The notes beneath the pieces are model-generated. The model saw only the letters and a list, made by a program, of their open reading frames with translations, was not told the origin of the DNA and searched no databases. From contig CAZECW010000018.1 in assembly GCA_964510585.1 (NCBI GenBank), forward strand, positions 5,634 to 37,633: a stretch of DNA of 32,000 bases, written 5' to 3'. Positions 20,811 through 22,314 of the stretch are shown one piece after another. The translations under genes were made by a program, and so were the position numbers. The stretch's first letter is position 1. Each line of letters starts with the position of its first letter. This stretch comes from an uncultured archaeon. GTDB taxonomy: Archaea > Asgardarchaeota > Jordiarchaeia > Jordiarchaeales > Jordiarchaeaceae.

Positions 20811-21035
20811 TTGTAAACACTCCTTATTAGGGAATCAAAAACAACAAAACACCAAATAAACTTTACGTACAGCATTTAACAGCAAAAAACAGTAAAACCA
20901 ATAAAAAAATAAATATATCGCCCATTTTCACAGAAAACAAATAAATATTCTAAGAACTCTAAACTAAAAGGTAGCTAAAATTCACAAAAATTGAGAAAAA
21001 TGTTAAAATGAAGATGCCGGGGTAACCAAGTGGAT

Positions 21036-21055
21036 CACGTTATAGGCGTACAAAA
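21036..21055 (+). other. tRNA intron 1 (D-loop, 18-20 nt, relaxed BHB; exact ends uncertain)
   Basis: The D-loop is about 18-20 nt too long and contains an ACG/CGU hairpin. Two relaxed BHB registers fit: 21036..21055 or 21037..21054. Confidence 0.7.
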
Positions 21056-21064
21056 ACGGTGCAG

Positions 21065-21089
21065 ATACTTACTAGTGTAGTTAGCACAA
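21065..21089 (+). other. tRNA intron 2 (anticodon stem, position 29/30, 25 nt)
   Basis: GUGC-AG^A...GCAC-AA^G forms a perfect 4-bp helix with two 3-nt bulges. Removal makes CAG+GC = CAGGC, complementary to GCCUG. Confidence 0.88.
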
Positions 21090-21097
21090 GCCTGGAG

Positions 21098-21109
21098 AAT
21101 ATCCTAGTA
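21098..21109 (+). other. tRNA intron 3 (canonical position 37/38, 12 nt)
   Basis: CUGG-AG^A-AUAUC-CUAG-UA^A; helix CUGG/CUAG. Removal restores a 7-nt anticodon loop. Confidence 0.88.
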
Positions 21110-21143
21110 AGCCTGTGGTCCGAAAGGATCGCGCGAGTTCGAA

Positions 21144-21171
21144 AGGAAAATATTTATTATTTACCCGAGTG
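21144..21171 (+). other. tRNA intron 4 (T-loop, position 59/60, 28 nt)
   Basis: UUCG-AA^A-GG...CC-CGAG-UG^U; helix UUCG/CGAG flanked by the T-stem. Removal restores UUCGAAU. Confidence 0.9.
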
Positions 21172-21263
21172 TCTCGCCCCCGGCGCCAATAACTACCCTT
21201 TTCAGTGGCCGGAACATATTTTGACTTGTTAAAACTAGGTAGGAATAACTGGATTTTGGATGC

Positions 21264-22314
21264 TTATTCCTCAGCTTCCTCGCTTCTGTCGTGTTTTTTC
21301 CACATAGGAGGGTAGGTTCCCGGCTCCATTAAGACACGGTTTATTTCCACTGCAACCCCGTGGTTTGAGGTGTACATTTCTTGACTGCTCATTTTTGCTA
21401 TTCCCAATGCTACAGCTTCATTTTTAAGCGTGAAGATTGAAACTAGATCACCAGCTTTTATTTCGCTCTCTAGTTTAACTATTCCAGGAGCGGTTAGATT
21501 TGCACCGTGACAAAGAGAATCTACGGCAGAGTCTCGTATAAAAATTTTAGGTATATGCTCCAGTGCATTTTCCATTGGTTGTATAATTTTTCTTAGGAAT
21601 GATTCGTCTCCATCTTCCTTCCAGAAATGGTAAGCATCAACGAGGTCGTATAGGTTTGTTATAGTATCTTCTTTGAAAGGCCCTGTTCGGGTGCGTCTGA
21701 GTTCTCTCATATGGGCGCCACAACCTAAAACCTCGCCGATGTCGTGGCAGAGCTTCCTTATGTAGGTGCCGGCCTCACAACCAACACGCAGGAGCCCATT
21801 TCTACCCTCTACTTCGTTTAGTTCAATATAGTATATTTCCCTAATCCTCACCCTCCTTTTAACCGAGGAGCGGAGCGGTGGACGCTGATAAATTTGTCCC
21901 GCAAACTCGTTTACAACTTCTCTCAATCTACTTTCAGACACATCCCCGTGCAGCCGAATTACACAAACATACTCTTTCCCAGCCGGAAGGAGAGCTTGAA
22001 CTACTTTAGTTGCAGATTCTAAAGCCACAGGAAGCACACCTGTGACTTTGGGATTTCACTGCCTCCTATGCTTCTGAAGGAAGCTCTAGTGTCCCAGCGT
22101 GGCCTGCCTTCTTAACATTCAAGATTTTTTTGACCCAGCTAACCACTTCATGTGAAGTGGGACCCGGAGGCTTGTCAATATTGACTATCCCGTTTTTTAT
22201 ATAATCTTCTATTTGACGTTCGTTGGGTGGAGTTCCATACTCCGGATTAGTGACCACGTTAGCCTTCTGGAGCATCTCTCTTTTCTTGTCGCTGGGTAAA
22301 AAACGCTCGACCAT
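21264..22314 (-). CDS. cbf5: Cbf5 H/ACA RNA-guided / tRNA psi55 pseudouridine synthase, with a 31-nt intron; join(22086..22314, 21264..22054)
   Basis: ORFs 22066..22314 ([19 protein letters not shown]) and 21264..22037 ([16 protein letters not shown] domain) join as [18 protein letters not shown] after intron removal; 339 aa. Confidence 0.96.
22055..22085 (-). other. BHB mRNA intron in cbf5 (31 nt)
   Basis: GGGA-CACU-AG^A-GCUUCCU-(10-nt loop)-AGGAGGC-AGUG-AA^A-UCCC is a full hBHBh' motif. It splits the GAU codon of the catalytic Asp and contains an in-frame UAG. Confidence 0.95.

Follow-up and report, generated by a model that had tools for sequence, protein, structure and literature searches.

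The stretch of DNA that we analysed (the window, 32 kb) is part of contig C18 of an archaeal metagenome-assembled genome (MAG) and contains a tRNA-Ser(GGA) gene at positions 21016-21188 on the plus strand. The gene is 173 nt long; it starts with GCCGGGG and ends with CCCCGGC, G and CCA. Parsed by hand, it becomes a canonical class II tRNA-Ser(GGA) of 88-90 nt, with G73 and an encoded CCA, when four inserts are taken out: one in the D loop, one between nucleotides 29 and 30 (29/30), one at the canonical position 37/38, and one in the T loop at 59/60. We think it probable (roughly 80%) that this gene, with four introns, is real and is the one functional tRNA-Ser(GGA) gene that this hot-spring Asgard archaeon has.

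The genome (G000) comprises 3.78 Mb in 217 contigs and is 96% complete. Its SecY is 95-97% identical to that of the 'Candidatus Jordarchaeia' MAGs QZM_A3 and RPF2 and 81% identical to that of the complete 'Freyarchaeia' chromosome CP147778.1. Judged by these sequences, the organism is an Asgard archaeon of the class Jordarchaeia/'Freyarchaeia', in the same genus as the complete 'Freyarchaeia' genome. DNA of the organism is present in hot-spring metagenomes. We compared the gene with five other genomes of the genus (G001-G005), among which G005 is a published complete genome.

The five exons and four introns are listed below with the evidence for each. This evidence includes ARAGORN, bulge-helix-bulge (BHB) motifs, the minimum free energy (MFE) fold, and a cloverleaf-with-jumps solver that was written for this analysis and was blind to what the initial annotation of the gene had proposed.

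21016-21035, plus strand: exon 1, with the acceptor 5' strand GCCGGGG, U8, A9, the D-stem 5' strand ACC and the 5' part of the D loop, AAGUGGAU (hand parse, solver, covariation of acceptor and D stems).
21036-21053, plus strand: intron 1, in the D loop after G18-G19-N-N, 18 nt, gene positions 21-38 (removal needed by ARAGORN; homologous register).
21054-21064, plus strand: exon 2, with the 3' end of the D loop, the D-stem 3' strand GGU, G26 and positions 27-29, CAG (ARAGORN, solver, pairing across orthologues).
21065-21089, plus strand: intron 2, at position 29/30, 25 nt, gene positions 50-74 (BHB motif, compensatory change, annotation of an orthologue).
21090-21097, plus strand: exon 3, with positions 30-31, GC, and loop positions 32-37, CUGGAG, including the anticodon GGA (ARAGORN, motif scan, solver).
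21098-21109, plus strand: intron 3, at the canonical position 37/38, 12 nt, gene positions 83-94 (BHB motif; kept in six orthologues).
21110-21143, plus strand: exon 4, with A38, GCCUG, the 17-nt variable region with its 5-bp arm, GCGAG and T-loop positions 54-59, UUCGAA (ARAGORN, solver, pairing across orthologues).
21144-21171, plus strand: intron 4, in the T loop at 59/60, 28 nt, gene positions 129-156 (full hBHBh' motif; MFE fold; gap in G005 and G002).
21172-21188, plus strand: exon 5, with U60, the T-stem 3' strand CUCGC, the acceptor 3' strand CCCCGGC, G73 and CCA (hand parse, ARAGORN, pairing across orthologues).

The exons together account for a complete cloverleaf. The acceptor stem is formed by gene positions 1-7 and 163-169, the D stem by 10-12 and 43-45, the anticodon stem by 47-49 plus 75-76 with 96-100 (CAG+GC/GCCUG), and the T stem by 118-122 and 158-162 (GCGAG/CUCGC). 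The anticodon loop is CUGGAGA, with the anticodon GGA at gene positions 79-81, and the T loop is UUCGAAU. The variable region (gene positions 101-117) is 17 nt long with an arm of 5 bp; this long variable arm, the G73 discriminator and the Ser anticodon GGA are the class II traits of tRNA-Ser. All five exons are colinear and on one strand within the 173 nt, and the gene is neither split nor permuted.

A tRNA-Ser was obtained only when all four inserts were removed. ARAGORN called the spliced product Ser(GGA) for each D-loop register of 18-20 nt, and retaining any single insert left no Ser call. The solver recovered the same four inserts and found no penalty-free cloverleaf with fewer than four removed. 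It has a weakness, in that it returns many false solutions with five or six 'introns' in long regions, and it fails on real genes (Arg-TCT, Arg-TCG, Arg-CCT and the locus called 'Ser-AGA'), which makes it unsuitable for a census. Hand parse, ARAGORN and solver agree with the initial annotation, which had described a single tRNA-Ser(GGA) gene with four inserts of these sizes at these places.

The gene escapes standard tRNA finders, as the initial annotation had warned it might. Neither ARAGORN, with its intron option on or off, nor Rfam at gathering thresholds gave a match in the raw 32-kb window, and a search of the whole genome with RF00005 did not list the Ser(GGA) gene even at E <= 1.

The inserts at 29/30, 37/38 and 59/60 each have a BHB motif with 4/4 central pairs and 3-nt bulges, bearing out the 4-bp helices and bulges that had been described for the last three inserts. 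In the geometry that we used, the central helix joins two stretches of four bases, one in the exon and one in the intron, each of which stops two bases short of its cut (the 5' cut for the exon, the 3' cut for the intron); the cut falls after the second base of each 3-nt bulge, the rule given in PMC2738675. At 29/30, exon nucleotides 24-27 pair with the intron in a central helix GTGC/GCAC with bulges AGA/AAG, and the intron has a hairpin of 6 bp. At 37/38, the central helix is CTGG/CTAG with bulges AGA/TAA, and an intron helix is absent. At 59/60 there is a full hBHBh' motif, made up of the 5-bp T stem as exon helix, a TTCG/CGAG central helix with bulges AAA/TGT, and an intron helix of 7-8 bp. 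This last motif appears in the MFE fold of the precursor.

The cloverleaf is conserved across the inserts in the other members of the genus. A Ser(GGA) orthologue was found in all five other genomes. The orthologues in G003, G001 and G004 are 95-97% identical and have all four inserts in common with the window's gene, and those in G005 and G002 are approximately 73% identical and have the D-loop, 29/30 and 37/38 inserts. The T loop of G005 and G002 is intact (TTCAAAT), with a clean gap of 28 columns exactly between positions 59 and 60. Among the six orthologues and 25 cloverleaf pairs, all 150 cells held standard pairs, compared to 30-51% in slid controls, and five pairs had changed on both sides. 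The BHB helices were paired in 99% of cells, with one compensatory pair, and the length of the 37/38 intron was 11-12 nt in all six genes.

The compensatory change involves a nucleotide with two alternative partners. In the 29/30 central helix, U25:A is replaced by C25:G in the comparison with G005 and G002. In the D stem, A10-to-G matches this change of U25 to C as well. This double covariation of nucleotide 25 is as would be expected if it paired with the intron first and with nucleotide 10 later.

The exons are nearly invariant among close relatives. Across the close genomes, of which there are four, variation was seen in 1 of 90 exon columns versus 14 of 83 insert columns (Fisher p = 2e-4). 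On this comparison, the inserts are shown to evolve faster than the exons. The gene adjoins cbf5, and this locus is conserved in close relatives.

The Ser(GGA) gene is the only detectable decoder of UCU and UCC in the genome. The initial annotation had asked for a check on another Ser(GGA) gene elsewhere; no second locus was found by BLAST of the mature sequence against the organism's own genome or by an anticodon-constrained search of that genome that covered 605 of 897 seeds. The seeds combined a 7-bp acceptor stem, U8, A14, C61 and a T arm. The gene in the window was the only convincing and the only penalty-free Ser-type GGA solution; the two remaining penalty-free GGA solutions were the Leu-GAG and Trp-CCA genes, parsed in another way. 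In the published table for the congener's complete genome, Ser-GGA likewise occurs only once.

Several points weigh against reading the gene as functional with four introns. The covariation comes effectively from two lineages, and the seeds of the search for a second GGA gene were strict and incompletely covered. The predicted occupancy of the D-loop helix is close to zero, both before splicing and in all partly spliced intermediates, and its motif is degenerate in the window's gene and in the three closest relatives; moreover, relaxed motifs with three of four pairs occur by chance at most arbitrary boundaries (bioRxiv 10.64898/2026.10.13.758758). Splicing in the cell is something that we infer here from DNA alone. 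Contigs of two 'metatranscriptomic WGS' (whole-genome shotgun) runs, which are probably DNA, and of one RNA and one DNA run contained only the unspliced form of a related strain and no exon joints; the RNA run had no match to the gene, and the set of runs is uninformative on splicing either way.

The D-loop insert is the least regular of the four. Its motif is relaxed (GTGG/GTAC, 3/4 pairs) and has no flanking helix, and we placed it in the register homologous to that of the relatives. Other registers with 3/4 pairs are possible, giving 16-20 nt; we infer the exact 3' boundary, which may lie as far as 21055. The sole strict BHB in the D-arm region, with a cut after gene position 13 and 16 nt in length, gave a product that lacked A14 and G18-G19 and that ARAGORN rejected. 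In G005 and G002 the sequence of the D-loop insert is unrelated to that in the window's gene, yet the pairing GTGG:CCGC or GTGG:CCAC is kept, with the D stem as outer helix and a fold probability of 0.93-0.99. The pairing at this site is GTGG:CCAT in a Ser gene from the sister family, and the organism's own Ser-TGA gene shows a 4/4 BHB whose 5' context, AGTGGAT followed by the cut, is identical. Because the congeners, the sister-family Ser gene and the organism's own Ser-TGA keep a 4/4 motif there, the comparison indicates that the D-loop insert occupies an intron position of long standing, with a motif that has degenerated in the window's subclade.

The strongest alternative is that only the introns at 29/30, 37/38 and 59/60 are excised by EndA, the splicing endonuclease, and that the D-loop insert is retained as an enlarged D loop or removed in some other way. 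The 3/4 pairing, the missing flanking helices and the near-zero occupancy described above would fit this, as would the fact that tRNAscan-SE and R2DT left the homologous insert uncounted in the published congener. However, a 30-nt D loop would disrupt the elbow formed by G18-G19 and the T loop, and ARAGORN rejects the product with three introns removed. The congeners and the sister-family Ser gene hold on to the 4/4 BHB here even though the insert sequence varies freely, and the BHB of Ser-TGA, which shares the 5' context, is canonical. Purifying selection acts on the exons of all four genomes with the degenerate motif, and two-subunit endonucleases accept relaxed motifs (PMC2738675). On balance we consider the three-intron alternative unlikely. 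A related reading, similarly unlikely, is that the D-loop insert of this subclade has lost any competent BHB although selection on the gene continues, and that the insert is removed independently of a pre-formed BHB or is kept as the 30-nt D loop of a working tRNA; possible routes to removal would be protein-assisted or order-dependent recognition by a two-subunit endonuclease, or pairing in trans.

A decaying or non-functional gene, with UCU and UCC read by another tRNA, is very improbable. The degenerate D-loop BHB could be taken as a sign of decay, and in a MAG of 217 contigs a second copy could have gone unassembled. Against this, the exons are nearly invariant and the inserts variable, none of the 25 cloverleaf pairs is broken in any of the six orthologues, among which compensatory changes are present, and the locus next to cbf5 is conserved in close relatives. 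BLAST and the anticodon search found no other GGA gene, the complete genome of the congener has a single Ser-GGA gene, and the congener's published 'Ser-AGA' parses as Cys-GCA and provides no alternative decoder. Finally, chance resemblance of an AT-rich intergenic stretch, for which one could cite the many spurious five- and six-'intron' solutions of the permissive solver in random long regions and the frequency of chance 4/4 central helices (31 within the 173 nt), is effectively refuted by conservation with covariation in five other genomes. Two further points against it are that the anticodon search gave no other penalty-free Ser-type GGA solution among the seeds covered and that tRNAscan-SE scored the published orthologue at 76.8 bits.

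The genome encodes a splicing endonuclease and a ligase, which would act on the four-intron precursor. A profile search found two PF01974 (EndA) genes. The 192-amino-acid protein, encoded on contig C157, keeps the catalytic residues Tyr, His and Lys; its closest match is 3p1z_B, the catalytic subunit in the heterotetramer of Aeropyrum pernix (E = 3e-45). Its paralogue, of 198 amino acids and encoded on the tRNA-rich contig C126, has Thr at the site of the catalytic His of the Methanocaldococcus jannaschii enzyme. From these features, EndA appears to consist of two kinds of subunit, as in the alpha2-beta2 type of Crenarchaeota. This architecture accepts relaxed motifs at non-canonical positions. 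Such acceptance by two-subunit endonucleases is discussed in PMC2738675. The ligase RtcB (PF01139) is also present, with a match of 578 bits over its full length (G000:C58:3702-5036, plus strand). The RtcB match contains one in-frame TGA, which could be a selenocysteine codon, an mRNA mini-intron like others in the genome, or an assembly error.

The likely pathway would use these enzymes in the ordinary way. A precursor of about 173 nt would have its cloverleaf interrupted in the D loop and at 29/30, 37/38 and 59/60. At each intron, the exon bases just 5' of the first cut would pair with the 3' end of the intron, forming a 4-bp helix between two 3-nt bulges. EndA would cleave after the second bulged base of each strand and RtcB would join the exons, giving a class II tRNA of 88-90 nt with G73 and CCA.

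We examined in silico the suggestion in the initial annotation that splicing may be ordered, with mixed results. Nucleotides 24-27 can indeed pair alternately with the 29/30 intron and within the mature stems, and one of these pairs covaries. For the window's gene, the helices at 29/30 and 59/60 were predicted to be populated already in the primary transcript, and the occupancy of the 37/38 helix rose from 0.09 to 0.56-0.69 once the 29/30 intron was removed. However, the predicted order differs in G005 and G002, and the pattern is weaker at 65 C. For these reasons we do not claim a conserved order of splicing.

Interrupted tRNA genes are the rule in this genome, because ARAGORN and RF00005 recover so few tRNAs from it: nine with ARAGORN, several of them dubious, and seven above the cut-off with RF00005. 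Among 28 genes validated with ARAGORN, 27 are interrupted (26 by the solver, which missed the intron of Gln-CTG), with at least 58 introns in total. T-arm introns of 26-33 nt are present in 21 of the 28, and in 16 of these 21 the intron is at 59/60, the commonest intron class of the genome. Two other genes, Leu-GAG (G000:C4:10407-10612, minus strand) and Trp-CCA (G000:C209:6905-7109, minus strand), also have four inserts, and ARAGORN validated each spliced product; seven further genes have three inserts by solver and ARAGORN. A few contigs (C126, C140, C104 and C209) hold clusters of tRNA genes. An Arg-CCT orthologue at G000:C104:2078-2392 (plus strand) matches the gene of the congener in two pieces approximately 180 nt apart, which suggests an unusually long intron or a rearrangement; the solver found no solution with a CCT anticodon at this locus.

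In several genes, overlapping BHB registers 3-4 nt apart give different anticodons (G000:C4:10407-10612, minus strand; L105-L108; L005:1501-1645). Leu-GAG of G000 can be read as GAG or GGA, and Ser-GGA of G005 as GGA or TGG. Because overlapping registers yield different anticodons, the register that is cut decides the identity of the tRNA.

The T-loop intron is restricted to the window's subclade. It is absent from G005, G002 and the sister-family Ser gene, and the T-loop intron of Ser-TGA has the same phylogenetic distribution as that of Ser-GGA. By parsimony, the T-loop intron would be a recent gain in the subclade. Parsimony is the sole argument here, because the orthology of the outgroup Ser gene to Ser-GGA is ambiguous: the splice register determines whether that gene reads GGA or TGA/CGA, and its anticodon stem is like that of Ser-TGA. 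When each intron was compared by BLAST with the organism's own genome, no paralogous copy came up, and so no source of the T-loop intron was identified. Matches to an anticodon-arm pattern, sought across the class, were confined to the genus apart from one chance match in a coding region of G009.

Multi-intron tRNA genes are already documented for this lineage. In Atabeyarchaeia and Freyarchaeia, 92-95% of tRNA genes have introns and more than half have several (PMC11291895; Valentin-Alvarado et al. 2024). Supplementary Data 4 of that paper lists genes with four introns: Arg-TCT, Ile2-CAT and Leu-GAG in Freyarchaeia, and Trp-CCA and Lys-TTT in Atabeyarchaeia. When we spliced the published coordinates of Ile2-CAT and Arg-TCT, ARAGORN accepted both products. 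The congener's Ile2-CAT is interrupted in the same four regions as the window's gene (D loop, about position 30, 37/38 and 59/60). More recently, an average of 2.2 inserts per gene and up to five have been described, with 129 inferred gains, 71 of them on terminal branches, and with D-arm inserts systematically missed by tRNAscan-SE (Goswami et al. 2026, October 2026, bioRxiv 10.64898/2026.10.13.758758). The maximum of three introns given in the initial annotation is outdated in light of these two sources, and the claim of novelty that rested on it falls. The window's gene is a new example of a multi-intron kind already tabulated for the genus, not a new kind, and its mechanism is the ordinary archaeal one.

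The published table undercounts the introns of the closest tabulated orthologue. The G005 Ser-GGA gene is listed at 1482398-1482542 with two introns, a 26-nt intron at 29/30 and the 37/38 intron (PMC11291895). Removing these two gave no ARAGORN call; removing the 20-nt D-loop insert as well gave Ser(GGA). Because the call needs the D-loop insert to be removed too, we take this gene to have three introns. The T-loop intron is absent from it, and the window's gene adds a 28-nt intron at 59/60 to make four. In the same genome, the gene published as 'Ser-AGA' with an Infernal score of 25.2 (L074, G005:C1:1326639-1326821; also at G000:C177:6238-6384) parses as a tRNA-Cys(GCA) with U73 and at least four inserts. 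ARAGORN called its spliced form Cys, and no solution with the anticodon AGA was found. The 17-nt 'variable region' left over in the Cys(GCA) parse suggests one more unrecognised insert.

The initial annotation had named Thermoproteales as a group in which multi-intron tRNAs occur. The host is not of that lineage: its SecY neighbours place it in the Asgard class Jordarchaeia/'Freyarchaeia', and Thermoproteales belong to a different phylum (Thermoproteota). Thermoproteales also use 29/30 and 59/60 as intron positions, and are not known to have more than three introns per gene. Their non-canonical and multiple introns are spliced on the same principle, with a BHB motif, cleavage behind the second bulged base and an endonuclease that is heteromeric (Sugahara et al. 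2008; Marck & Grosjean 2003; reviewed in PMC4033280 and PMC4090602). Intron density is about 2.2 per gene in the Asgard lineage versus 1.54 in the richest Pyrobaculum (bioRxiv 10.64898/2026.10.13.758758). Split and permuted tRNA genes (Nanoarchaeum, Caldivirga, Cyanidioschyzon) are likewise disrupted and processed at BHB motifs; unlike them, the gene described here has colinear exons and needs neither trans-splicing nor permutation.

The neighbouring cbf5 gene (21264-22314, minus strand), which adjoins the tRNA gene, is also split by an intron. This hBHBh' intron of 31 nt (22055-22085, minus strand) has a central helix CACT/AGTG, bulges AGA/AAA, an exon helix of 4 bp and an intron helix of 7 bp. 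The cut lies between base 1 and base 2 of the catalytic Asp codon (GHAGTL, then DPKVTG), the same codon phase as in the classic crenarchaeal cbf5 intron (PMC2738675). Removing the intron gave a stop-free reading frame of 339 amino acids, and the same intron, of 31-32 nt, is also present in G003, G001, G004 and G002. A literature search found no paper naming cbf5, an intron and Asgard together.

The known picture of tRNA genes in this lineage is unchanged, since genes with four or five introns and hidden D-arm introns had already been described. The value of the finding lies first in annotation: the gene is missed by ARAGORN and Rfam, and the table for the closest complete genome under-counts the introns of its orthologue. 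The T-loop intron also provides a clean case of presence and absence within one genus, and together with position 25, which covaries with the intron in the precursor and with nucleotide 10 in the mature D stem, it is useful for studying how introns arrive and persist in Asgard archaea.

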